55,056 nucleotides of DNA from a virus: IMG/VR virus record IMGVR_UViG_3300030319_000065, positions 1 to 55,056 of that record. One strand, 5' to 3'. The translations under genes and the position numbers were made by a program. Each line of letters starts with the position of its first letter. Within the stretch, counting starts at the first letter, position 1. A model generated the notes under the pieces. That model made no database searches and was not told where the DNA came from. It saw only the letters and a list, made by a program, of their open reading frames with translations. Shown here one piece after another: positions 21,716 through 55,056 of this stretch.

Positions 21716-22162
21716 ATGTCCGAAAAAGTTGTATACGCTATAAAGCATAACAAAACAAACAGAATATACATAGGTTCATCGGAAAGGGTGTGTTGGAGAA
21801 TAAAAGATCATCTGAAATTACTTAGAACTGGAAAACATAAGAATGAACTTATGCAAAGTGATTTTAACGATTTTGGTGAAGATTACAGTTTTTATGCTTT
21901 GGATGTAGTACCTACCCAGTGGTTTAAAGAAAGAGAATATTACTGGATGCTATATTTTGAAACATATAACAAAGAAAAGGGGTACAACTACAAAGATCGA
22001 GCAATGGCAAGACGTGACATTAAATATTTCCCTGAGATTGATATGGAAATTACAGAACCGGTCAAAAATAGGGACATGCTAACTTGTTTTGAAAGAACTG
22101 CGAAGTATTTAGGCTATGGATTGGACGAGTTAATGGCTTTGAAGAAAGAGGAAAGCGACTAA
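21716..22162 (+). CDS. GIY-YIG nuclease domain protein
   Basis: Motifs VVYAIKHNKTNRIYIGSS, WRIKDH, EREYYW and GYN. Confidence 0.7.
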   Translation: MSEKVVYAIKHNKTNRIYIGSSERVCWRIKDHLKLLRTGKHKNELMQSDFNDFGEDYSFYALDVVPTQWFKEREYYWMLYFETYNKEKGYNYKDRAMARRDIKYFPEIDMEITEPVKNRDMLTCFERTAKYLGYGLDELMALKKEESD

Positions 22163-22721: not shown

Positions 22722-23456
22722 ATGAACGAATTACAGATTTTCAATTCATCAGAGTTTGGAGAAATCCGGACAATAACTATTGATAATGAACCGTGGTTCG
22801 TGGGTAAAGATGTAGCAGAAGCACTTGAATATAACGAACCTCACAAGGCTATCTCAAGACATGTCGATGAAGATGATAGGATGAAACATCCCGTCAACGA
22901 TTCAACAGGAAGAAATCAGGAGGTATGGATAATTAACGAGTCTGGTGTATATGCATTGACTTTTGGAAGCAAATTGGAGTCAGCCAAGAGGTTTAAACAT
23001 TGGGTGACATCAGAAGTGCTCCCATCAATCCGGAAAACCGGAAGATATGGAGTTCCAAAAACACCAAGTGAACAGATACAGCTGATCGCACAGGGATATG
23101 TGGAACTTGAGCATACAGTAAATGGAATCAAAGATGATGTGGCTGATCTGAAAGACAATATGCCGTTATATGGTTGCGAGATAGATGAAGTATCGAACCA
23201 CGTAAAGCGGAGAGTGGTAAACGTCCTTGGTGGCAAAGATAGCGAAGCATACAAGGACAGTAGCGTTAGAGGACAGGTATTTTCTGATATTTACACGCAG
23301 ATCAAACGGGAGTACGGACTGGTATCTTCCTATAAGAGTATCAAGAGGAAATATCTGGCAGATGTGCATGATTTCATTGATTGCTACGAACTTCCTCGAT
23401 ATTTGGAAGAACAGATCAATGAGTGTAACGCACAAATGAGAATAGGAGGTATGTGA
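22722..23456 (+). CDS. Antirepressor: Bro-N domain plus ORF6C-like C-terminal domain
   Basis: N-terminal Bro-N signature: FNSSEFGEIRTITIDNEPWFVGKDVAEAL, INESGVYALTFGSKLESAKRFKHWVTSEVLPSIRKTG. Confidence 0.8.
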   Translation: MNELQIFNSSEFGEIRTITIDNEPWFVGKDVAEALEYNEPHKAISRHVDEDDRMKHPVNDSTGRNQEVWIINESGVYALTFGSKLESAKRFKHWVTSEVLPSIRKTGRYGVPKTPSEQIQLIAQGYVELEHTVNGIKDDVADLKDNMPLYGCEIDEVSNHVKRRVVNVLGGKDSEAYKDSSVRGQVFSDIYTQIKREYGLVSSYKSIKRKYLADVHDFIDCYELPRYLEEQINECNAQMRIGGM

Positions 23457-37293: not shown

Positions 37294-37500
37294 ATGAGAC
37301 TATCGGAGTTGACTAAGCCGGAACTTGAAAAAATTAGAAAAAACGCCAATTTTACAAAGGACGAAGAAACTGTATTTGAAATGGTTTCAAGAGGGAAAAC
37401 TATTGTTGAAATTGCAGACAGAATAAATGTTTCTGAACGGACAGTAGACCGACATATAGCCAAGGTAAAGTTGAAAATTAAGAAATTGGAGGCGTTTTGA
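37294..37500 (+). CDS. Sigma-70 region-4 / LuxR-type HTH regulator
   Basis: FTKDEETVFEMVSRGKTIVEIADRINVSERTVDRHIAKVKLKI. RBS AAGGAG. Confidence 0.65.
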   Translation: MRLSELTKPELEKIRKNANFTKDEETVFEMVSRGKTIVEIADRINVSERTVDRHIAKVKLKIKKLEAF

Positions 37501-37672: not shown

Positions 37673-39034
37673 GTGAAAGAATGTGTTGCGTATATAAGAG
37701 TTTCTACGGAAAAGCAAGCCGAAGAAGGACACGGACTGGACAGCCAACGTAGAGATATTGAGAACTATTGCAGAAAAAATGGTTTGCTGATATCTGACTG
37801 GTATGAAGATGATGGCTATACCGGATCCAACATGAACAGACCAGCGTTGCAAAGCCTTGTTACGGACTGTACGAAGAAAAGAGTAAAATGCGTTGTTGCA
37901 TTTAAACTTGACAGATTGTCTCGAAGTATGGTGGATGGAATATATCTGATAGAAAGAGTGTTTCAACCAAATGATGTTGAGTTCCTGTGTGTACACGATA
38001 GTGTTAGTTATGACAGCCCTATGGAGCAAGCATATACTCAGATGATGGCAGTTTTCGCACAACTGGATAAAAATACCATGATGTTACGTATGCGTGGCGG
38101 TATGTTAGAACGCGTGAAAAAAGGTTACTGGAAAGGTGGCGGAAATCCACCATACTGTTATGAATACGACAAAGAAAAAGGTATATTGATTCCAATTCCA
38201 GAGCGGGCAGAACAAGCAAATAAAGCGTTGGATTTGTTCATAGATGGATATTCTGATGAACGAATTATGAGGACTCTTGGATACAGATCAGAATTTATAG
38301 TACGTAGTATTCTAACTGGCGTAGTAAATGTTGGAATGATACCGTACAAAGGAAATGTATATCAGGGACTTCATGAGCCGATATTTGATAAAAAGAAATT
38401 TGAGTTTGCTCAAAAATTAAGAGAGTCAAGAAGAAAATCAAAAATGTATCTAAAAAGTGAACCTAAACTTTTAACCGGATTGTGCTATTGTGGAATATGT
38501 GGTTGCAAGATGCGGTATCAGAAATGGACAAATGGGAATTGTAAAATATACTGTTATTCCAGAAATCACGGAATGGAATATCTGCCGAATTATAACAAGA
38601 ATTGCAATAATACAGTAGAGTGGGCAGAGAATATTGAGAAACAAGTAGAAAGTGAAATCCTAAAAATATCAGTGAATCTATCAGAGCATAAGCCAAAAGC
38701 TAAAAAGAATAAACTTGAGATCATGGGAAATCAGGCTGATAAAGAGAAGAAAAAGCTAAAAAGGCTATATGGATTGTATGCTGATGGAAACGATATGGTC
38801 ATTGAAATGATAAAAGATCTTGAAGGAAACATTTCTGCATTAGAAGAACAAATCAAAGAAGAACGGAAGAGATCTTCGGACAATCAAAAAAGTTTTGTTT
38901 ACGAGAATATAAAAAATCTTGCCGATATATGGGAGAAAATCGACAAGACTCGTAAAAATAAAATATTGAAAAGTATAATCGAAAAGATTGTAATTGTCAA
39001 TGGAAATGTTGAAATTCAATTGAAAAATTTTTAG
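37673..39034 (+). CDS. Large serine recombinase (integrase)
   Basis: AYIRVSTEKQ catalytic-Ser motif and KLDRLSRS. Cys cluster CYCGICGCKM...C. 453 aa. GTG start after GGGGGT. Confidence 0.85.
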   Translation: MKECVAYIRVSTEKQAEEGHGLDSQRRDIENYCRKNGLLISDWYEDDGYTGSNMNRPALQSLVTDCTKKRVKCVVAFKLDRLSRSMVDGIYLIERVFQPNDVEFLCVHDSVSYDSPMEQAYTQMMAVFAQLDKNTMMLRMRGGMLERVKKGYWKGGGNPPYCYEYDKEKGILIPIPERAEQANKALDLFIDGYSDERIMRTLGYRSEFIVRSILTGVVNVGMIPYKGNVYQGLHEPIFDKKKFEFAQKLRESRRKSKMYLKSEPKLLTGLCYCGICGCKMRYQKWTNGNCKIYCYSRNHGMEYLPNYNKNCNNTVEWAENIEKQVESEILKISVNLSEHKPKAKKNKLEIMGNQADKEKKKLKRLYGLYADGNDMVIEMIKDLEGNISALEEQIKEERKRSSDNQKSFVYENIKNLADIWEKIDKTRKNKILKSIIEKIVIVNGNVEIQLKNF

Positions 39035-39040
39035 CACTGA

Positions 39041-39066
39041 CTAATAATCATAGGTATGATTATTAG
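39041..39066. repeat. Perfect 12-2-12 palindrome CTAATAATCATA-GG-TATGATTATTAG; attP candidate
   Basis: Read directly. Begins 7 nt after the recombinase stop codon. Confidence 0.9.
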
Positions 39067-39117: not shown

Positions 39118-39164
39118 AGTCGCTTAAATGTCGTTTTCAAGACGTTTGAAGCGACTTTTTTTTT
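39118..39164 (+). terminator. Intrinsic terminator
   Basis: AGTCGCTT...AAGCGACT stem followed by a T9 run. Confidence 0.8.
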
Positions 39165-39194
39165 GCCAAAATTTAGGTACAAGGAGGGCATGAT

Positions 39195-39371
39195 ATGTTT
39201 TCGGATGAAATACTTGAAAAGATTTTTGGAAGAGATGATGTGATGAAAGTTCCGTTATCTTACCAGTCAACCATGATACATGCAGTGGAAGAAGTTCTGG
39301 AAGAGGTGAAAAAAGAAAATGCAAATGAATCCAATGAATCAGAATCAATACTTGCAGAATACGGGTTATAG
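39195..39371 (+). CDS. 58-aa acidic hypothetical protein (cargo cassette gene 1)
   Basis: ATG 7 nt after AAGGAGG. Read by hand. Confidence 0.5.
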   Translation: MFSDEILEKIFGRDDVMKVPLSYQSTMIHAVEEVLEEVKKENANESNESESILAEYGL

Positions 39372-39840
39372 TACGCAAAACCAGTTCGGACAATCTTATC
39401 CTGTATACAATCCATATCAGTATCAACAGAGGATGCAACAATATCAGCAACCTGTTCAACAGAATTATGCTCCGTCAGGTATTCCAGGGAAAGTAATTCA
39501 GACAGAAGAAGCAGTTGTTGCCAATGATGTTCCTATGGATGGATCCACGGCACTCTTTCCGATGCAAGATATGTCTATGATTTTAGCCAAAAGTTGGAAT
39601 GGAGACGGAACTATTAAGACAACCGTGTATAAGCCGATTTTAGACAATAAAGGCACTAAGACTAACAACTTACCACTGGAAGAAGAAAAATCGAAAATAG
39701 ACGCACTCAGCGAGACTACAGAGGCACTTGTGACAAAAATAGATGAACTGTTCGGAAAAATCGAACAGTTGGAGCAGTCTATGACTAAAACGACAACAAA
39801 AAGTCGTGGATCAGTTACGAAAAAGGATGGTGCGGAATGA
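39319..39840 (+). CDS. Q/N/Y-rich low-complexity N-terminus plus globular and coiled-coil protein (cassette gene 2)
   Basis: ATG 10 nt after GAGGTG. Begins MQMNPMNQNQYLQNTGYSTQNQFGQSYPVYNPYQYQQRMQQYQQPVQQNY. Confidence 0.6.
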   Translation: MQMNPMNQNQYLQNTGYSTQNQFGQSYPVYNPYQYQQRMQQYQQPVQQNYAPSGIPGKVIQTEEAVVANDVPMDGSTALFPMQDMSMILAKSWNGDGTIKTTVYKPILDNKGTKTNNLPLEEEKSKIDALSETTEALVTKIDELFGKIEQLEQSMTKTTTKSRGSVTKKDGAE

Positions 39841-40058
39841 ATATAATGCAGCTTATTGGAAAAGGTCCAGAACAATTTATACAGAATATGCTTAGTAATA
39901 ATCAAGTCATGAAAAATCCAATGGCGAAAAATACATTGGATATGGCTCAAAAAGGAAATATGCAAGGAATCGAGCAAATGGCGAGAAATCTTTGCAAAGA
40001 AAATGGCTTGGATGCTGACGAAGTAATGAATCAGATAAAAAGCAGATTTGGTTTGTAG
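39837..40058 (+). CDS. 73-aa hypothetical protein (cassette gene 3)
   Basis: ATGA coupling to the upstream gene. Confidence 0.55.
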   Translation: MNIMQLIGKGPEQFIQNMLSNNQVMKNPMAKNTLDMAQKGNMQGIEQMARNLCKENGLDADEVMNQIKSRFGL

Positions 40059-40131
40059 CATATTAGAGGTTTGCGCGCAGAAACTTAAGTACCTCTTTAT
40101 GAAAAATATATTTCAAGGAGGAAAATCTAAT

Positions 40132-40914
40132 ATGTTTAACTCAAACACACCTTTTACAATGCCCGTTATGCCGGCAACCGGAGGATATTCTGACGGTGCA
40201 GGATGGGGAGACGGTGGATGGTTATGGATCATCGTTGTCTTTGCACTCCTTTTTGGCTGGGGAAATAACGGCTGGGGAGGCTTCGGAGGAAACGGCGGTG
40301 GAGCATTACAGGGATATGCTACACAGGCTGACATTCAGAGAGGGTTTGACACTCAGGCAATCGTAGGAAAACTGGATGGTATTACCAACGGTCTATGTGA
40401 TGGTTTCTATGCTGTAAACAACAGTATGCTTACTGGATTTAATGGCATCAACACAAACATCATGCAGACTGGCTACGGCATCCAGCAGGCTATTAACGCT
40501 GATACAGTCGCTAATATGCAGAATACGAACGCTTTACAGGCTCAGTTAGCTAATTGCTGCTGTGAAACAAGAGAAGCTATTCAGGGCGTAAATTACAATA
40601 TGGCTCAGAATACTTGTGCATTGCAGAACACAATGAACAGTAACACCAGAGATATTATTGACAGCCAGAACGCAGGAACAAGAGCAATTCTTGATTACTT
40701 GTGCCAGGACAAGATTTCTACTTTACAGGCAGAAAATAACGATTTGAGAATGGCAGCTTCACAGGATAGACAGAACGCACTTCTGACTACTGCCATGACC
40801 GCTCAGACAAATCATATTATTGATGCAGTAAGACCAACACCTGTACCTGCATATCCTGCATCTAACCTTTATGGTTATGCTGGATGCGGATGCAACACAG
40901 GTTGTGGGTGCTAA
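40132..40914 (+). CDS. Gly/Trp-rich membrane-anchored, Q/N-rich, Cys-tailed protein (cassette gene 4)
   Basis: ATG 10 nt after AAGGAGG. GWGDGGWLWIIVVFALLFGWGNNGWGGFGGNGGG, a CCC motif, and a C-terminus GCGCNTGCGC. Confidence 0.65.
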   Translation: MFNSNTPFTMPVMPATGGYSDGAGWGDGGWLWIIVVFALLFGWGNNGWGGFGGNGGGALQGYATQADIQRGFDTQAIVGKLDGITNGLCDGFYAVNNSMLTGFNGINTNIMQTGYGIQQAINADTVANMQNTNALQAQLANCCCETREAIQGVNYNMAQNTCALQNTMNSNTRDIIDSQNAGTRAILDYLCQDKISTLQAENNDLRMAASQDRQNALLTTAMTAQTNHIIDAVRPTPVPAYPASNLYGYAGCGCNTGCGC

Positions 40915-41062
40915 AACCGAATGTAAATTCATACGGTTAAAACTGAATATTGAGTAACTTAACCAAGATTTAGACAAGGTTATGTCTGCATAAGCAGTAT
41001 TACAAGTAAAGAGGGCAGATCATAACGGTTTGTCCTCTGATTTTGATTGGAGGGAAAACAAT

Positions 41063-41485
41063 ATGGCTGAATATGTAGCAGTGGCAACACAGGAAGTTGC
41101 ACAGAATGGAAATGTTGTATTTACGAATACAGCAGTTAAAGGCTCAAATTGTATACAACACAGAGAGGGGAGTGGAATTATAACACTCAGAGGTCTGACA
41201 AACCAGTGTAAAGCAAGATTCTTTGTAGATTTTTCTGCTAATATTGCTGTACCTACTGGTGGAACGGCAGGAGCTATCTCGTTGGCTATCGCCATCAGTG
41301 GCGAACCTGTTTTATCTTCACAGATGATTTCGACTCCGGCAGCAGTTGACCAGTTTAACAATGTTTCGGCAGGAATCTATGTAGATGTGCCAGCTCATTG
41401 TTGTGTAAATATTGCCGTTGAAAACACAAGTACACAGGCTATTGAAGTATCAAACGCAAATATTATAGTCACAAGGGAGGCGTAG
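41063..41485 (+). CDS. C1q/TNF-like jelly-roll protein resembling the BclA C-terminal (exosporium) domain (cassette gene 5)
   Basis: ATG 8 nt after GGAGGG. Alternating beta-strand pattern with ISLAIAISGEPV...IAVENTSTQAIEVSNANIIVTR. Called by eye only. Confidence 0.45.
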   Translation: MAEYVAVATQEVAQNGNVVFTNTAVKGSNCIQHREGSGIITLRGLTNQCKARFFVDFSANIAVPTGGTAGAISLAIAISGEPVLSSQMISTPAAVDQFNNVSAGIYVDVPAHCCVNIAVENTSTQAIEVSNANIIVTREA

Positions 41486-41491
41486 TAAGTT

Positions 41492-42196
41492 ATGGATGTA
41501 AAGAGAATGCATTGTATGATTGAAAAACTCTCAGAGTGTGCGAAAGAAGAATTTGAAAAAGGTATTGAGTGCGTAGATACTGACGAGATGGGAAAAGTAA
41601 CAGATATGCTCAAAGATCTTGCTGAAGCTATGTACTATCGCACCTTAACAAACAGTATGGAAGAGTCTAGTACAGAAGAAGTACTTTCCATGTTCGACCG
41701 ATACGGTGACAGACGTTTTTACGACCATTACAGATATGCAGACGGGAGATTTGCACCGAAAGGGCATGGCTCATACCGCAGAGGATATGAAGAGCATCCG
41801 TACTGGCATATGACACCGGAAATGTATCGTGATATGTCACCGGAATATCTCAGGGACATGGATTTGGACTATGACCGGATGTATTACTCAGGAAAAGGTA
41901 CTTATCCACGTCCAGCAGGTCTGGAAATGGGAAACGCAAAACACTTTTACGGTGGTGATTCTGACATGATGCGTGATTCCAGAGAGGGAAAAGCCGGAGC
42001 ATACCGGAAAGCATATATGGAGACAAAAGAACTACACAAAGGAAATACTCAGCAAGATAAAGAAGCCAAAATGAAAGATCTGGACACCTACATGAAAGAA
42101 CTTGGTGAGGATGTTCTGGAACTGGTTCACGACATGACACCGGAAGAAAAAACGTTGTTGAAAACTAAAATGACAACGCTTGTTACGAAGCTTTGA
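41492..42196 (+). CDS. Tyr/Arg/Asp/Met-rich hypothetical protein (cassette gene 6)
   Basis: 234-aa ORF. Contains YRRGYEEHPYWHMTPEMYRDMSPEYLRDMDLDYDRMYY. Confidence 0.6.
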   Translation: MDVKRMHCMIEKLSECAKEEFEKGIECVDTDEMGKVTDMLKDLAEAMYYRTLTNSMEESSTEEVLSMFDRYGDRRFYDHYRYADGRFAPKGHGSYRRGYEEHPYWHMTPEMYRDMSPEYLRDMDLDYDRMYYSGKGTYPRPAGLEMGNAKHFYGGDSDMMRDSREGKAGAYRKAYMETKELHKGNTQQDKEAKMKDLDTYMKELGEDVLELVHDMTPEEKTLLKTKMTTLVTKL

Positions 42197-42201
42197 TTCA
42201 T

Positions 42202-42226
42202 GGGGGACGTTTTGTCCCCTTTTTCT
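42202..42226 (+). terminator. Intrinsic terminator
   Basis: GGGGGAC-gtttt-GTCCCC followed by a T-run. Confidence 0.8.
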
Positions 42227-42322
42227 TGTACATTGACAACTAAATATTGGCTAGTGATTTGTAGATTTATCTCCTGATTTGTGGTAGAATGTTGTCAACT
42301 ATCTAGTGAGGGAGGAACTATT

Positions 42323-42997
42323 ATGGGTTTTAGGTTAAATACTGGTGATAGTCAGCAAGAAAGTAGAGAAGATTATAACCAAAGAATGGTAAAAGGAATG
42401 AGATTATGTAAGTGTTGTAAAAATGAAATTCCTGTAAATGCTAAAAAATGTCCGGTTTGTGGGAAAAGGCAAAGTGGAGGTTGTTTAAAAGTTGTATTGA
42501 TCGTAATAGCTGCATTTATTATGATTGGGATTGTTTTTGGTGGTGACGATAGTTCTGATAAAGAAGCAAAATCGGATAAAAAATCAGAATCAACGCAGAC
42601 AGAGAGTAAACAACCGGAACTGACACCGGATGAATATAAGGCTCAATGTGTTGATTTGCCCTTTAATGATGTTATGAGAAATCCAGATGATTATGTCGGT
42701 CAGAAGTTTAAAATAACGGTTCAGATCTCCTCTGCATCAGACAGCGTAACAAATGGAAGATACTACAAAGCATACACAGACGATGGAAGCGGTTCATATT
42801 TCGATAAAATGATTTGGATTATGGACAAACGGGACGAGAACGCTGATGGATATGTAAAACTTCTGGAAGAAGATATTGTGACGTTTTATGGAGAATTTAA
42901 CGGACTGCAAAAAAGTGAAAACAGCTTGAGTGGAGAAAAAACAGAAGACATGAGTCTTGATATTTACTATGCAGATATCGTACAAGCAGCAGAATAA
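42323..42997 (+). CDS. Zinc-ribbon / single-TM / extracellular-domain protein (moron; possible superinfection exclusion)
   Basis: ATG after GAGGGAGG. CKCCKNE..CPVCGK, then a TM helix. Extended -10 TGgTAGAAT at 42282-90. Confidence 0.6.
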   Translation: MGFRLNTGDSQQESREDYNQRMVKGMRLCKCCKNEIPVNAKKCPVCGKRQSGGCLKVVLIVIAAFIMIGIVFGGDDSSDKEAKSDKKSESTQTESKQPELTPDEYKAQCVDLPFNDVMRNPDDYVGQKFKITVQISSASDSVTNGRYYKAYTDDGSGSYFDKMIWIMDKRDENADGYVKLLEEDIVTFYGEFNGLQKSENSLSGEKTEDMSLDIYYADIVQAAE

Positions 42998-43005
42998 CAT
43001 TTTCT

Positions 43006-43034
43006 AGCCAGTGCCAAAAGGTACTGGCTTTTTT
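43006..43034 (+). terminator. Intrinsic terminator
   Basis: AGCCAGTGCC-aaaa-GGTACTGGCT followed by T6. Confidence 0.8.
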
Positions 43035-43043
43035 AGAAAAACG

Positions 43044-43072
43044 GTTGACTTTTTTGTGCGTACAGTATATAT
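43044..43072 (+). promoter_or_regulatory. Sigma-A-type promoter
   Basis: TTGACT, 17-nt spacer, TATATT. Confidence 0.55.
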
Positions 43073-43102
43073 TAAATGTACGGACAGAAAAGAGGTGGTT
43101 AT

Positions 43103-43276
43103 ATGTCCCCCACAAAGGGCAGACCAAAACTTGACAATCCCAAAAATGAAAGAATATATATTCGCGTTACAAAAAATGAGAAAAAAGAAATAATGGATTT
43201 TTCTGAAAAAAGCGGGTATACAATACTTGATTTGATTAAAATTGGAATTGAAAAAGTAAAAGGTCAAAAAAAATAA
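43103..43276 (+). CDS. Ribbon-helix-helix (CopG/MobC-like) DNA-binding protein
   Basis: KGRPKLDNPKNERIYIRVTKNEKKEIMDFSEKSGYTILDLI. Confidence 0.5.
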   Translation: MSPTKGRPKLDNPKNERIYIRVTKNEKKEIMDFSEKSGYTILDLIKIGIEKVKGQKK

Positions 43277-43394
43277 AGCGTTGCACCGCTACCAACGAAA
43301 ACAACGCTTTAAGCTACCAATCACAAGGATTGATAAATCTATTCTATCAGTTCTGTGATTATAATTCAAATGTTTTTTGAAAGGACGATGGAAT

Positions 43395-43652
43395 ATGGAA
43401 GAATTCGCAAAGATGATATATGAGCAATGGTGTGAAACTGATGAAGCAGAAGAATTTAGTTGGGGACGAGAGTATGAAGAATCTTGGAAAAAGGTTTATG
43501 ACATACTCAATGAAAAACTGGCTACTGATATTGAATGCTCTATAAATAAAAGAGTATGGGATATTCAGGAAAAATCGTTTATTGCCGGTTTTTCTTATGC
43601 TTGCAAATGTTTGTCTGCCGGAAAGATTGATTTGAAAGGCGGTGCGAACTAA
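43395..43652 (+). CDS. Hypothetical protein
   Basis: ORF starting MEEFAKM. Confidence 0.45.
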   Translation: MEEFAKMIYEQWCETDEAEEFSWGREYEESWKKVYDILNEKLATDIECSINKRVWDIQEKSFIAGFSYACKCLSAGKIDLKGGAN

Positions 43653-44347
43653 TGAGCAATATTATTACAGTAGAAAACACCGAAATGCAGATCAGAGAGT
43701 ATAATGGTGAGAGGGTAGTTACTTTTGATGATATTTGCAAAGCGCATAAATGTGAGAGAAAAAGACTTACACGACATTTTGAAAGAAAACGCAAGTATTT
43801 TATAAAAGATGAAGACTACTATCAATTAACAAGAAAAGAGTTAGGCGACCTCACGTCGCCCAAAGAAAAAATAGTAGGAAATCCAAATCTTAAAACTTAT
43901 TTGTTTACTGAAAGCGGTTATCTAATGGTTATAAAATGTTTGGATGATGATATTGCTTGGCAAGTACAACGGCAGTTGGTGAACACGTACTTTAAAGCAA
44001 AGGAAGAGTCAGTGCAGCTATTGTTGTCAGAAGAACCAGAGCCGAAGTATAAGACAAGTGATACGAAGATAAGATTGAATCCGGTATGGTACGAAAGAAA
44101 CAGACGTACAATAGAGCATATCTGTAGGAGTGCTAACTTGCCAAAGAAAACCTTGTATCATGAAATCTTGGTGTATCTTGGTGAGCAATACGATCTGGAC
44201 TATGCAAACTATCTATACCAAAAGGAAACAGGCAATCCACCGAAGTACCCGATGGACATAGTAAATTACTTTACACAGCTTGGAGAAGAAGCTGACGGGT
44301 ATCTAAAGCGATTGGAAACGAAAATGCGTGAGTTGAACTATATGTAA
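43652..44347 (+). CDS. ORF6N/KilA-N-type DNA-binding (antirepressor-like) protein
   Basis: QIREYNGERVVTFDDICKAHK......HFERKRKYFIKDEDYYQL...YLFTESGYLMVIKCLDDDIAWQVQRQLVNTYF. Confidence 0.6.
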   Translation: MSNIITVENTEMQIREYNGERVVTFDDICKAHKCERKRLTRHFERKRKYFIKDEDYYQLTRKELGDLTSPKEKIVGNPNLKTYLFTESGYLMVIKCLDDDIAWQVQRQLVNTYFKAKEESVQLLLSEEPEPKYKTSDTKIRLNPVWYERNRRTIEHICRSANLPKKTLYHEILVYLGEQYDLDYANYLYQKETGNPPKYPMDIVNYFTQLGEEADGYLKRLETKMRELNYM

Positions 44348-44439: not shown

Positions 44440-44760
44440 ATGAGGTTCAAAATAAATGGGATAGAATGGCAGACAGTAGAGGTGCCATCGTCTGATGGTT
44501 CTCTGAGACGTTCTGACGGGTCTTTAAGCGTTGGAGTAACAGATAATGGAACATACTGCATCTATCTATCAAAATCGCTTAGAGGGGCATTTAAGCGCAA
44601 AGTAATGATACATGAGGTTTGCCATGCTTTTATGTTTTCGTATGGTGTGATAATACCGATAGAACAGGAAGAGTTTATCTGTGATTTTGTAGCAACCTAT
44701 GGGGATGATATTTTTAGCGTAGTTGATATGATGGAACGAACCATGAAAAGAGCTATATAA
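44440..44760 (+). CDS. Small HExxH metallopeptidase-like protein
   Basis: Motif MIHEVCHAF. 106 aa. Confidence 0.5.
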   Translation: MRFKINGIEWQTVEVPSSDGSLRRSDGSLSVGVTDNGTYCIYLSKSLRGAFKRKVMIHEVCHAFMFSYGVIIPIEQEEFICDFVATYGDDIFSVVDMMERTMKRAI

Positions 44761-45085: not shown

Positions 45086-45125
45086 AGCAGAATCTATCAG
45101 ACGTGGTGGGTTCTGCTATTTCTTT
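45086..45125 (+). terminator. Attenuator-like hairpin upstream of the antirepressor RBS
   Basis: AGCAGAA...TTCTGCT stem followed by ATTTCTTT. Confidence 0.4.
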
Positions 45126-45171
45126 CCAAAACTATAGATGCAATTACAACAGTAAAGGAGGATATGTATAT

Positions 45172-45900
45172 ATGAATGAAATAAAGATTTTTAATAACAG
45201 TGAATTTGGAGAAATTAGAACGATAAAAGACAGTGTAAACAACGTGTGGTTTTGCGGAAACGATGTGTCAAAAGCACTAGGGTATGAGAGAACTGCAAAG
45301 GCAATTTCAGATCATGTAGATGATGAGGACAGACATGAAGTCCCAATTCGGGATTCCATCGGAAGAATGCAGAAGACAGCGTTTATAAACGAAAGCGGAC
45401 TGTACGCACTTGTGCTATCTAGTAAGTTACCAAGTGCAAGGAAGTTCAAACGCTGGGTTACTTCTGAGGTTCTGCCATCAATCCGGGAAAACGGGATCTA
45501 TGCAACAGATAATGTTATCGACGAGATTTTGAACAATCCGGACTTTGGAATTGAATTACTAACAAAGCTTAAAGAAGAACGACAGGCAAGAGTGGAAGCC
45601 GAACGAAAAAATGCTGTTCTGATGCATGTGAACAAGACTTATACAATGACGGAGATTGCAAAAGAACTTGGATTGAAGAGTGCTATTGAACTAAATAAAA
45701 TCCTTGCTGAAAAGAAAATCCAGTACAAAGTAAACGGTACGTGGGTTATGTATTCTCAGTACAGTAATCTTGGATATGAGGAAATCAAACAGGAAGTTTT
45801 AGACAGTGGAAGAGTAGTATACCACAGAAGAATCACTCAGCTTGGCAGAGCATTTATACTTGAAGTGATCGGAGAAAATTTTGAAAAGGAGTTAGCATGA
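45172..45900 (+). CDS. Antirepressor: Bro-N domain plus KilAC-like C-terminal domain
   Basis: ATG 10 nt after AAAGGAGG. FNNSEFGEIRTI...WFCGNDVSKALGY, INESGLYALVLSSKLPSARKFKRWVTSEVLPSIRENG. Confidence 0.8.
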   Translation: MNEIKIFNNSEFGEIRTIKDSVNNVWFCGNDVSKALGYERTAKAISDHVDDEDRHEVPIRDSIGRMQKTAFINESGLYALVLSSKLPSARKFKRWVTSEVLPSIRENGIYATDNVIDEILNNPDFGIELLTKLKEERQARVEAERKNAVLMHVNKTYTMTEIAKELGLKSAIELNKILAEKKIQYKVNGTWVMYSQYSNLGYEEIKQEVLDSGRVVYHRRITQLGRAFILEVIGENFEKELA

Positions 45901-50207: not shown

Positions 50208-50582
50208 ATGGCAGATAGAGAGATACCTGGTGAAGTAAATATACTTGGAACTGAATACGGTATAGAGGTTCGTAGAATTAGTGAGAATCCAGACCTTAAG
50301 AACTATAATCGTAGTGCATATTGCGATAAGCTTTCAAAGCTAATAGTGATAGCTGATTTGAGCGAAAAGGAATACGTTGATATATCCACTGAACAGGAGA
50401 TTGATTACCAGAAAGAACTACTCAGGCATGAAATACTACACGCATTTCTGAATGAGAGTGGTTTATGGGATAACAGTTGTCAGCCAGAATGTGGATGGGC
50501 GATGAATGAAGAAATGATTGACTGGTTTTCGATACAGTCACCGAAGATTTTTAAAGCATATCAGGAAGTAGGTGCTTTGTGA
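50208..50582 (+). CDS. Small HExxH metallopeptidase-like protein
   Basis: Motif LLRHEILHAF. 124 aa. Confidence 0.5.
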   Translation: MADREIPGEVNILGTEYGIEVRRISENPDLKNYNRSAYCDKLSKLIVIADLSEKEYVDISTEQEIDYQKELLRHEILHAFLNESGLWDNSCQPECGWAMNEEMIDWFSIQSPKIFKAYQEVGAL

Positions 50583-54210: not shown

Positions 54211-55056
54211 TTGGCTTCTGATAATCTTATGGGAGCAGTTTCCAGTTATGAAAAATTTATAGAACAGCACGGTATAGAAGAGCCTGTTCTGGATGCATAT
54301 ATTGAAGCGTGTAAGGTCGCTATCCATACTGAGCGTGATGTTGAATATGGTTTACAGTGCACGAAGAGAAGTAAAGAACTAATAGAGCGGTTCTGTATGG
54401 AAAAGACAGGCGGTACAATCTGGGATCTGGAAAAGTTTGCGTTTGCAAATAAGACAGAATATGAACTGATTGACAAATTCTACGAACCAACACTTCTTGA
54501 AGCACAAAATCAGCAAGTGGAAAGCTATTTTCGGTATTTGGAGAAAAAGCGTGATCCTAAAGAACGGTTTTATATGCCGAAAAGAAATCAGTTTTTAAAT
54601 ATAGGCTTGACACAGGCTTTACAGGGAATGATTAATGATGATTATGACATTTTGTGCATTAGTCTTCCGCCTGGAACTTCAAAAACGACTGCTGAGAAGT
54701 TTTTTATTACAGGAGTAATTGGTTGGTTTCCAAAAGATTTCAGCCTGTTCTATTCTCACAGTGGTGACATTACCAGAATGTTCTATGATGGAGCGTATGA
54801 TATTGTAACAAATTCTGATGAATACACTTGGTATGATATTTTCCCTGATTTGAGAGTTACTAGTACCAATGCTAAAATGGAACAATTCAATGTTGGAAAA
54901 TACAAGCCGTTCCCATCATTACAGTGCACGTCAGTAGGAAGTAAAAATGCTGGTAAGGTTCGTGCATCAAAATATCTTCTGGTAGATGATATGATCGGTG
55001 GCATTGAAGAAGCTATGAATCCAACGATACTTGATAAGTTATGGGATAAATATGCT
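54211..55056 (+). CDS. terL: Terminase large subunit, N-terminal ATPase part; runs off the window and continues at base 100 via the 99-bp overlap
   Basis: TTG start 10 nt after GGAGG, with an alternative ATG at 54229. Walker A LPPGTSKT. No stop codon occurs before the window end. Confidence 0.85.
   Translation, partial: MASDNLMGAVSSYEKFIEQHGIEEPVLDAYIEACKVAIHTERDVEYGLQCTKRSKELIERFCMEKTGGTIWDLEKFAFANKTEYELIDKFYEPTLLEAQNQQVESYFRYLEKKRDPKERFYMPKRNQFLNIGLTQALQGMINDDYDILCISLPPGTSKTTAEKFFITGVIGWFPKDFSLFYSHSGDITRMFYDGAYDIVTNSDEYTWYDIFPDLRVTSTNAKMEQFNVGKYKPFPSLQCTSVGSKNAGKVRASKYLLVDDMIGGIEEAMNPTILDKLWDKYA

Follow-up and report, generated by a model that had tools for sequence, protein, structure and literature searches.

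A conserved, terminator-bounded phage gene cassette combines a predicted TNF/C1q-type jelly-roll protein with a putative membrane-anchored stalk protein

The virus genome considered here, IMG/VR virus record IMGVR_UViG_3300030319_000065 (positions 1 to 55,056; this whole stretch of 55,056 nucleotides is referred to below as the window), carries a block of six genes, designated P1 to P6, downstream of an integrase gene. A reading of the sequence alone had proposed that this block is a cargo cassette bounded by terminators which decorates or alters the surface of the spore or the cell. Translation of the window showed that the six co-directional open reading frames (ORFs) are all present at 39195-42196, together with both flanking terminators and the sequence features that had been described for the products, and the hairpin followed by a run of T's on either side bears out the description of an autonomous, terminator-bounded cassette. 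The genes and signals are as follows.

39118..39164, + strand: intrinsic terminator, a long imperfect hairpin (39118-39156) followed by nine T's, -19.1 kcal/mol
39164..39176, + strand: conserved box TGCCAAAATTTAG, family consensus (A/G)TGCnAAAAT(A/T)T
39195..39371, + strand: P1, 58 amino acids (aa), acidic
39319..39840, + strand: P2, 173 aa
39837..40058, + strand: P3, 73 aa, Met/Gln-rich, helical
40132..40914, + strand: P4, 260 aa
41010..41038, + strand: terminator-like hairpin in the P4-P5 spacer
41063..41485, + strand: P5, 140 aa
41492..42196, + strand: P6, 234 aa, rich in Tyr, Arg, Asp and Met
42202..42226, + strand: intrinsic terminator closing the cassette, GC hairpin GGGGGACGTTTTGTCCCC and a T-run

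Although the ORF of P4 opens with TTG at 40048, an AAGGAGG ribosome-binding site indicates that translation starts at ATG 40132; the start of P5 is ATG 41063, not TTG 41030. The block had been called tightly coupled, which holds for P1/P2 and P2/P3, which overlap, and for P5/P6, which are spaced by 6 nt, but not for the surroundings of P4, where gaps of 73 nt (before P4) and 148 nt (before P5) are found, the latter with the hairpin at 41010-41038. The P4-P5 segment (40000-42000) has a GC content of 42%, compared to 34-37% in the flanking kilobases.

The AlphaFold2 model of the P5 monomer that was obtained with a diverse alignment has a predicted local distance difference test score (pLDDT) of 97.8 and a predicted TM-score (pTM) of 0.90 and supersedes a run with 25 near-identical sequences (pLDDT 59.8). 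Compared with the PDB using Foldseek, this model produced 128 matches at E<=1e-3, headed by the C-terminal domain of F-BclA (9h38; E 3e-8, TM-score 0.74-0.80), with BclA (1wck), ExsFA (7r1m), BxpB (8d02) and the ExsF complex (9h3d) among the further matches; these exosporium proteins are followed by eukaryotic tumour necrosis factor (TNF)/C1q domains (EDA, 4-1BBL, C1q), and the structural matches in BFVD and the PDB include tail-fibre tips and collagen-C1q fibre proteins. The Pfam family BclA_C (PF18573) does not match the window P5 at E<=1 and is matched by 5 of 47 diverse P5 relatives, with a best E of 1.2e-7. Given the model, the Foldseek matches and the BclA_C matches in relatives, the C1q/BclA-like fold that had been guessed from the strand pattern of the fifth protein is correct, and P5 is, as modelled, a stand-alone TNF/C1q jelly-roll of the BclA-C/ExsF kind, presumed to form a homotrimer. 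All 140 aa belong to the globular domain, and no GXX repeats or exosporium leader were found in the protein.

P5 belongs to phrog_20016 (E 1e-59), a family with no assigned function. A collection of 5.8 billion proteins, each of which stands for one 90%-identity cluster, contains 5,689 homologues, which form 665 clusters at 50% identity; nearly all of those listed are stand-alone proteins of ~140 aa. A single-protein search of genome contigs returned two loci only. Within the head-region phage lineage introduced below, the mean identity of P5 is 98.3% compared to 91.9% for the major capsid protein, a difference which we count as selection on P5.

The product of the preceding gene, P4, begins with an acidic N-terminal tail and a Trp-flanked hydrophobic segment bordered by Gly-rich stretches, continues as a long helical region rich in Q/N and closes with an RPxPxPAY motif and the tail CGCxxGCGC. 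The motifs GGWLWIIVVFALLFGWGNNGWGGFGGNGGG and CCC and the GCGCNTGCGC tail are present in the window and kept across the family: in an alignment of 15 diverse members, CCC (in the form Q-x3-CCC) is invariant in all 15, RPxPxPAY is near-invariant, the terminal CGCxxGCGC is shared, and the hydrophobic core comprises 12-14 residues between Trp residues, with Gly/Asn/aromatic flanks. The N-tail is acidic and almost free of Lys and Arg in most members, and reaches ~45-80 residues in the homologues from crAss-like, Bacteroides and archaeal viruses. A GDGG motif just before the hydrophobic segment is also conserved. From this layout we infer that P4 is the core membrane-anchor or stalk protein of the cassette, probably trimeric. 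P4 belongs to phrog_16490 (E 1.2e-62), again with no assigned function, and matches at least 7,881 database proteins, none of them named. Profile comparison of P4 with influenza HA2 and the coronavirus spike gave only sub-threshold matches (E 0.2-9), which we take as a resemblance and not as demonstrated homology; this resemblance probably explains the labels 'spike protein/glycoprotein' and 'viral fiber' on crAss-like homologues. The likeness of P4 to YjcZ-type sporulation peptides that had been suggested was not borne out, given that the corresponding NCBIfam model (TIGR01732) does not match at E<=1 and that P4 is a 260-aa protein with a large helical domain. Among the window translations, no o-spanin-type lipoprotein was seen in the cassette and no second transmembrane segment in P4.

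P2 combines a Q/N/Y-rich N-terminus (about 60% Q/N/Y in the first 50 residues, as counted on the translation) with a small beta-rich core and a C-terminal coiled coil; the versions from locus L049 and from Butyrivibrio phage Ceridwen are members of phrog_21718, and the family alignment takes in members from Clostridium perfringens and Vescimonas. The relatives of P3 correspond to phrog_22984, and a C. perfringens phage homologue is matched at E 9e-5. In P6, helical N- and C-terminal parts enclose a low-complexity centre rich in Tyr, Arg, Asp and Met, and one of its two subtypes is phrog_28802. Homologues of P1 (49-100% identity) were found in 30 of the 82 loci described below, only in cassette versions adjoining an integrase; P1 has no match in Pfam, PHROG or NCBIfam, and P6 has none in Pfam, NCBIfam or the PDB. 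Searches of P1-P6 against Pfam, NCBIfam and PADLOC yielded nothing significant, the PADLOC match of P3 being at chance level, and sequence searches of the PDB with P2, P4, P5, P6 and the papain-like neighbour described below gave chance-level matches only. Among the analogues in other phages, the sole significant Pfam match was to DUF7841, in a neighbouring gene, and none was relevant to the cassette. No signal peptides were found in P2, P3, P5 or P6. It had been stated that the block does not resemble phage genes; this has to be qualified, given that P4 and P5 belong to PHROG families 16490 and 20016, with no assigned function, and that relatives of P4 are annotated as 'spike protein/glycoprotein'.

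The conservation of the cassette was assessed in two samples, namely 82 viral loci found with P5 and searched with two subtypes each of P2, P3 and P6, and 57 loci of a second phage lineage, found with its scaffold protein instead of P5. The order P2-P3-P4-P5-P6 is retained in 82 of 82 P5-seeded loci. In 81 of these P4 and P5 stand side by side, surrounded in nearly all loci with enough sequence by P2, P3 and P6 in constant order; the two subtypes of P2 together span nearly all of these loci, as do those of P6, which share one slot. All 57 scaffold-seeded loci contain the whole cassette, located between a MuF-like head gene and the scaffold/capsid genes (hereinafter the head-region lineage). 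Distant P5 homologues (34-46% identity) are found in the order phrog_3754 - P2 - P3 - P4 - P5 - P6, followed at one locus by a small protein of holin-like appearance with a transmembrane segment and a coiled coil. Given that one gene order recurs across the related loci examined, the arrangement is far beyond chance. The phrog_3754 protein (~125-137 aa; L049 3370-3753, L001 4074-4451, L168 4237-4617, L172 5840-6253), which is encoded before P2 in many cassette versions and missing from the window, shows the Cys...His...Asp pattern typical of papain-like peptidases. It is conceivable, as a speculation, that it cleaves a leader from P4 after the GDGG motif, in genomes other than the window.

Conservation of gene order is combined with exchange of parts. 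The window cassette is a mosaic in which P1-P4 and P6 are 98-100% identical to loci L005/L006 and P5 is 99% identical to L003. In loci L007-L012 other genes are inserted in the P4-P5 spacer, in L009 (4670-5922) a small protein of the ribbon-helix-helix type and an anti-repressor-like gene, so the spacer tolerates insertions; it is a point of recombination and insertion within the cassette. Homing endonuclease genes of the HNH or I-HmuI type adjoin the cassette in Ceridwen (L001 6518-7312), the crAss-like phage cr52_1 (L085 6841-7419) and Bacteroides phage C3_41T2LP (L088 4006-4626), which suggests that the cassette has been spread by endonuclease-driven gene conversion. In the head-region lineage, the cassette is immediately followed by a tRNA-Gln gene (anticodon CTG; L049 7315-7389), beyond which comes the scaffold gene; the cassette of this lineage is Gln-rich (P3 21%, P2 12%), and its P4 uses CAG for 18 of 19 Gln residues. 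In the window, Gln is encoded by CAG at 19 of 19 positions in P4, 6 of 7 in P5 and 5 of 5 in the capsid gene, whereas the integrase gene prefers CAA (12 of 16).

The contexts of the cassette include the positions after serine or tyrosine integrases, after lysis genes, in the head-gene region, in the tail region of a crAss-like phage and beside recombination genes. Temperate relatives share the order of a helix-turn-helix (HTH) or excisionase-like gene, an integrase gene (tyrosine or serine), the cassette, a gene for an ImmA-like HExxH protein, and anti-repressor genes. In L083, a Lachnospiraceae metagenome-assembled genome, similarity to free phage genomes starts just past the position of the integrase gene, and host genes abut the HTH gene and the cassette. 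In Vescimonas fastidiosa MM35 the order is holin, amidase, HTH protein, phrog_3754, P2-P6, host lactate permease, lactate dehydrogenase and miaB. The placement of the cassette at a prophage end, which had been predicted for the window, is thus borne out in these two relatives, where host genes adjoin it.

Upstream of the first cassette gene, all loci examined share the order of a hairpin, six to nine T's, the conserved box and a ribosome-binding site, the latter at 39181-39188 in the window. In the window and in each of 40 loci there is a single copy of the TGCnAAAAT box, which invariably lies immediately before the first cassette gene, also where the cassette sits in the head-gene region. The 5' stems exist in 11 distinct versions with unrelated sequences, all of which fold (-6.9 to -19.1 kcal/mol); they were folded one by one because their lengths differ too much for alignment-based covariation. 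No known RNA was detected in the cassette region by Rfam. We read the hairpin at 39118-39164 as a terminator that insulates the cassette from upstream transcription. The box is extended -10-like, without a clear -35 element, and, judging by its consensus, may be an extended -10-like promoter or a binding site for a regulator. The candidate for a dedicated regulator that travels with the cassette is an HTH protein, encoded in the window at:

37294..37500, + strand: small sigma-70 region-4-like HTH protein, 68 aa, with the integrase gene between it and the cassette

This protein is 35% identical over 66 residues (E 1.6e-7) to a 68-aa HTH protein encoded just upstream of the L049 cassette, which itself has weak matches to Sigma70_r4 and to PHROG sigma factors. 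Such HTH proteins accompany the cassette in 58 of the 82 P5-seeded loci, and the Vescimonas prophage has one as well; in L027, L030, L040 and L083 the HTH gene immediately precedes the cassette.

Beyond the temperate relatives, phrog_3754 and P2-P5 are carried by Ceridwen, for which only lytic growth was seen and which its authors judged virulent, on a non-sporulating Butyrivibrio host (PMC7372960). Homologues of P4 are encoded by four C. perfringens phages, many crAss-like phages, Bacteroides phage C3_41T2LP and viruses of Methanomassiliicoccales, and every P4 match in the phage collection traces to a gut, rumen or sewage sample and to a strictly anaerobic host. The slot after P4 is filled by another beta-rich protein in the crAss-like, Bacteroides, archaeal and C. 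perfringens genomes. Profile-profile comparisons revealed no homology of P5 to the slot-5 proteins of the C. perfringens and Bacteroides phages, and none of P2 and P6 from Firmicutes phages to their look-alikes in Bacteroides phages, which are similar in composition only; hence, outside the Firmicutes phages, only P4 is demonstrably homologous. In cr52_1 (L085 2814-6703), four of the six genes in the cassette region, including the P4 homologue, contain in-frame TAG codons, which indicates stop-codon recoding. Recoding of TAG generally goes with late genes.

Taken together, these observations lead us to favour, tentatively and with a probability of roughly 0.4, the view that the cassette is an insulated accessory operon which builds a membrane-anchored, fibre-like complex of P4 and P5 at the envelope of the cell that produces it. 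It would be a self-contained 'moron' exchanged among phages whose hosts are strictly anaerobic microbes of the gut; its place in temperate phages would be beside the phage attachment site (attP), which brings it to the prophage end. The Trp-flanked hydrophobic segment would anchor P4 in the cytoplasmic membrane, from which P4 would extend as a long, probably trimeric, Q/N-rich helical stalk, with a P5 trimer docked on its proline-rich, cysteine-rich C-terminal tail. The product would be a two-polypeptide BclA-like fibre in which a coiled coil takes the place of collagen and a membrane anchor that of the exosporium. The docking is proposed by analogy, given that clefts between the subunits of the ExsF trimer bind the F-Anchor leader, which is proline-rich (PMC12357932), and that RPxPxPAY is conserved at the end of P4. 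P2, P6 and P3, with its Met-rich helices, could serve as chaperones or matrix partners, and P3 in particular may act as a chaperone that shields the hydrophobic segment of P4; expression would be under the control of the small HTH protein and the conserved box. The site of action would be the envelope, in lysogens or in infected cells, and the most plausible effect the exclusion of other phages or a change of the cell surface; what is said here of the promoter, of P2, P3 and P6 and of the gain for phage or host is proposed in the same conditional sense. The retention of P4 next to a slot 5 that varies by host group fits a shared chassis with a host-group-specific head.

Several observations weigh against this view. 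The charges that flank the hydrophobic segment of P4 do not fix its topology: if the stalk is outside the cell, P5, which has no signal peptide, needs another export route, and if it is inside, what is assembled cannot count as a surface fibre. The fit between the tail of P4 and P5 is weakened by the retention of the tail motif where slot 5 is not TNF-like. The presence of the cassette in Ceridwen, judged virulent, and in the TAG-recoded cr52_1 fits a role in the lytic cycle at least as well as one in the lysogen, and the CAG bias of P4 and P5 is like that of the capsid gene and unlike that of the integrase gene. PADLOC gave no match of P1-P6 to known anti-phage defence systems beyond the chance-level one of P3. 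In the literature we found no experiment on any homologue, and the searches returned no mention of the PHROG families, no text on the crAss-like 'spike protein' and no virion proteomics of phages with the cassette.

The same data can be read as a virion accessory, a non-essential head or tail fibre with P4 as the stalk, P5 as the knob and P2, P3 and P6 as chaperones, directed at a ligand common in the gut or at the host surface. Viral C1q/TNF-like domains are typically fibre heads, as the tail-fibre tips among the structural matches of P5 and the 'viral fiber/spike' annotations of P4 relatives recall; one lineage has the cassette between the MuF and scaffold/capsid genes at all 57 loci, cr52_1 has it within its tail region, and in an archaeal virus it is beside a tail gene; the codon usage of P4 and P5 resembles that of the capsid gene; and P4 is found in gut and sewage viruses across host phyla and domains. 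Nevertheless, this explanation appears somewhat unlikely, given that a 14-residue hydrophobic segment flanked by Trp would be unusual at the base of a fibre, that in the window and many temperate relatives the cassette is insulated and occupies a site between integrase and immunity genes, well away from the structural ones, that genes for a holin-like protein, an HTH protein and a tRNA share the head-region site, which thus looks like an accessory insertion site, and that P5 is highly conserved and does not diversify as receptor-binding proteins do. Lysis or egress is another process in which a membrane-active P4 could take part, as a class-I-fusion-like or spanin-like protein acting late on the envelope, with signal-less partners reaching the wall via holin lesions and slot 5 providing a host-group-specific wall-binding module. 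The cassette directly follows the endolysin and holin genes in Ceridwen and the Vescimonas prophage, although nearness to lysis genes might merely reflect the prophage-end position, and in the window it is ~18 kb from the inferred lysis region. Proteins with a transmembrane segment and a coiled coil that look holin-like (without a family match) and phrog_3754 are often attached to it, a neighbour in cr52_1 is annotated as LysB/FtsL-like, and the in-frame TAG codons are as expected for late genes. The profile matches to HA2 and coronavirus spike point the same way but are not significant (E ~0.2), in most hosts, which are monoderm Firmicutes, there is no outer membrane for fusion, and an endolysin is already encoded by at least C. 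perfringens phage XP41-N3, Ceridwen and the Vescimonas prophage, two of which also have an annotated holin; on balance, we regard such a role as unlikely.

A cytoplasmic location is the premise of a membrane-tethered scaffold, in which P4, with the N-terminus out and the C-terminus in, recruits P5, P2 and P6 into an assembly or condensate that organizes phage replication or assembly, or acts as a sensor-effector aborting the infection. A precedent is p16.7 of phi29, with an N-terminal transmembrane segment and a coiled coil, which organizes membrane-associated replication. The missing signal peptides of all partner proteins, the short, acidic and nearly Lys/Arg-free N-tail of most P4 proteins, the many cysteines of P4, which fit a reducing compartment, and the prion-like and R/Y-rich low-complexity regions of P2 and P6 are consistent with this arrangement. 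Against it, the N-tails of ~45-80 residues in the crAss-like, Bacteroides and archaeal homologues argue for an N-in orientation, and no nucleic-acid-binding or enzymatic domain was found with Pfam and NCBIfam, nor any match in PADLOC; we judge the scaffold decidedly improbable. The sequence-only reading itself favoured a lysogenic-conversion module that remodels the exosporium or coat of a spore-forming host. The BclA-C/ExsF fold of P5, the Cys-rich and Tyr-rich partners reminiscent of coat chemistry, the fact that coat and exosporium proteins likewise have no signal peptides, and the location at prophage ends could all be cited in its support. The spore link fails, given that Ceridwen, with the cassette, grows on a non-sporulating Butyrivibrio and that P4 occurs in Bacteroides phages, crAss-like phages and archaeal viruses; in one abundant lineage, moreover, the cassette is inside the head-gene region. 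It is also found in the prophage of Vescimonas, a genus described as non-spore-forming. The upstream box looks like a housekeeping extended -10 element and not like a SigE/SigK promoter, no collagen repeat, exosporium leader, YjcZ homology or coat-protein homology was detected, and the proposed likeness of P6 to tyrosine-rich spore-coat proteins finds no counterpart in Pfam or NCBIfam, which revealed no spore-coat homology for any of P1-P6. The cassette is thus not spore-specific, and decoration of spores appears highly improbable. A bolder version of the fibre idea, which we consider distinctly unlikely, is a virus-borne, two-polypeptide analogue of the BclA/ExsF fibre, with a class-I-fusion-like, cysteine-studded P4 stalk and interchangeable beta heads, that would function as an oxygen-triggered cross-linking or switching structure of the envelope or coat. 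The oxygen switch is suggested by the conservation of redox-sensitive residues, namely the invariant CCC, the CGCGC tail and the Met- and Tyr-rich partners. As part of this proposal, the head would be TNF-like in Lachnospiraceae and Oscillospiraceae phages, partners of low complexity rich in Tyr, Met and Gln would surround the stalk, and the module would be common to viruses of Firmicutes, Bacteroidota and methanogenic archaea, all strict gut anaerobes.

To our knowledge, no system of this composition and no such two-polypeptide class of viral structures has been described; the recognizable kinds are a phage accessory operon and a BclA/ExsF-type TNF-like fibre component. P5 shares with the C-terminal domain of BclA and F-BclA the jelly-roll and the length of ~135-140 residues (TM-score 0.62-0.73 to the BclA entries, compared to the 0.74-0.80 for 9h38) and differs from BclA in being stand-alone, without a collagen-like stalk, an exosporium leader or a link to sporulation, in an identity of only 12-14%, and in hosts that include non-spore-formers. 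As modelled, its architecture resembles more that of ExsFA/BxpB (ExsF), which forms stand-alone TNF-like trimers in the basal layer of the Bacillus exosporium and grips the proline-rich leaders of BclA and F-Anchor (PMC12357932): P5 is likewise stand-alone, of the ~140-170 aa class (TM-score 0.71-0.77), and its neighbour P4 ends in a proline-rich motif. In contrast to ExsFA/BxpB, P5 has no detected sequence homology to these proteins, its partner is a predicted membrane-anchored helical protein instead of a collagen fibre, and there is no basal layer of the ExsY/CotY type. With HA2, coronavirus S2 and the i-spanins (Rz), P4 has in common a hydrophobic peptide rich in Gly and aromatic residues, ahead of long Q/N-rich helices with conserved cysteines; unlike them, it has no second anchor or o-spanin partner, its matches stay at E ~0.2, and most hosts have no outer membrane. 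Among phage accessory genes, morons located at prophage ends include bor and lom of lambda, gp15 of HK97, and sie2009 and ltp, which lie between the integrase and repressor genes. The cassette is similar to such genes in being an insulated unit, with a terminator and a promoter-like box, and in its location by attP or the prophage end, its variable contexts and its membrane protein. It differs in comprising five to eight genes and not one, in occurring also in a phage judged virulent and in crAss-like phages, in being fixed within one lineage and not sporadic, and in the absence of homology to known exclusion genes.

As a result of this analysis, a block of hypothetical genes becomes a defined unit whose boundaries, cis element and candidate regulator can be named and one component of which has a confident fold. 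Altogether at least 7,881 P4 and 5,689 P5 proteins are without a functional name; the cassette is fixed in a very abundant lineage of human-gut phages, and P4, which crosses host phyla and domains, belongs to one of the more widespread uncharacterized gene modules of gut viruses. Should any of the readings as an envelope fibre, an exclusion system, a virion fibre or an egress factor be true, a function would be available for thousands of phage genes, and an architecture of the BclA/ExsF type would be at work outside spores. Culturable carriers are Vescimonas fastidiosa MM35, Ceridwen, the C. perfringens phages and Bacteroides phage C3_41T2LP.

The cassette resides in what appears to be an entire phage genome. 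Comparison of the window ends shows that bases 1-99 are repeated exactly at 54958-55056, so the window is a closed circular assembly, a complete phage genome of ~54,957 bp, and not a prophage with host flanks. Portal and capsid genes are near its start and recombination, replication and methylase genes at 24-34 kb, as tested against PHROG; the tail genes and the lysis genes near 20 kb are placed provisionally, from the layout of the ORFs and the endolysin noted in the sequence-only reading. Other features of the window are the following.

21716-22162: homing endonuclease gene, GIY-YIG-like (PHROG), apart from the cassette
22722-23456, 43652-44347 and 45103-45900: three anti-repressor genes
37673..39034, + strand: large serine recombinase (integrase) gene, outside the cassette
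39041..39066: perfect 11-bp inverted repeat CTAATAATCAT-AGGT-ATGATTATTAG, read from the sequence, 7 nt past the integrase stop codon
42281-42997: separate terminator-bounded gene (terminators 42202-42226 and 43006-43029) for a protein with a zinc ribbon, a transmembrane segment and an extracellular domain
44440-44760 and 50208-50582: two genes for small phrog_1233 proteins, the first with HExxH and ImmA-type protease-like

The integrase matches Pfam Resolvase (1.2e-31) and the PHROG integrase (5e-96), with near-threshold matches to Pfam Recombinase and Zn_ribbon_recom. The inverted repeat at 39041-39066 is a candidate attP core; in a relative that carries an integrase of the tyrosine type, phage and host sequence meet just past the integrase gene. 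The product of the gene at 42281-42997 has weak PHROG matches, one of which is to a Sie-like family; L005, a close relative, does not have this gene, and other relatives have it at another place; it is probably an independent accessory gene. In most relatives, the gene for the ImmA-like HExxH protein is located directly 3' of the cassette, whereas in the window four genes (42281-44347) lie between them.

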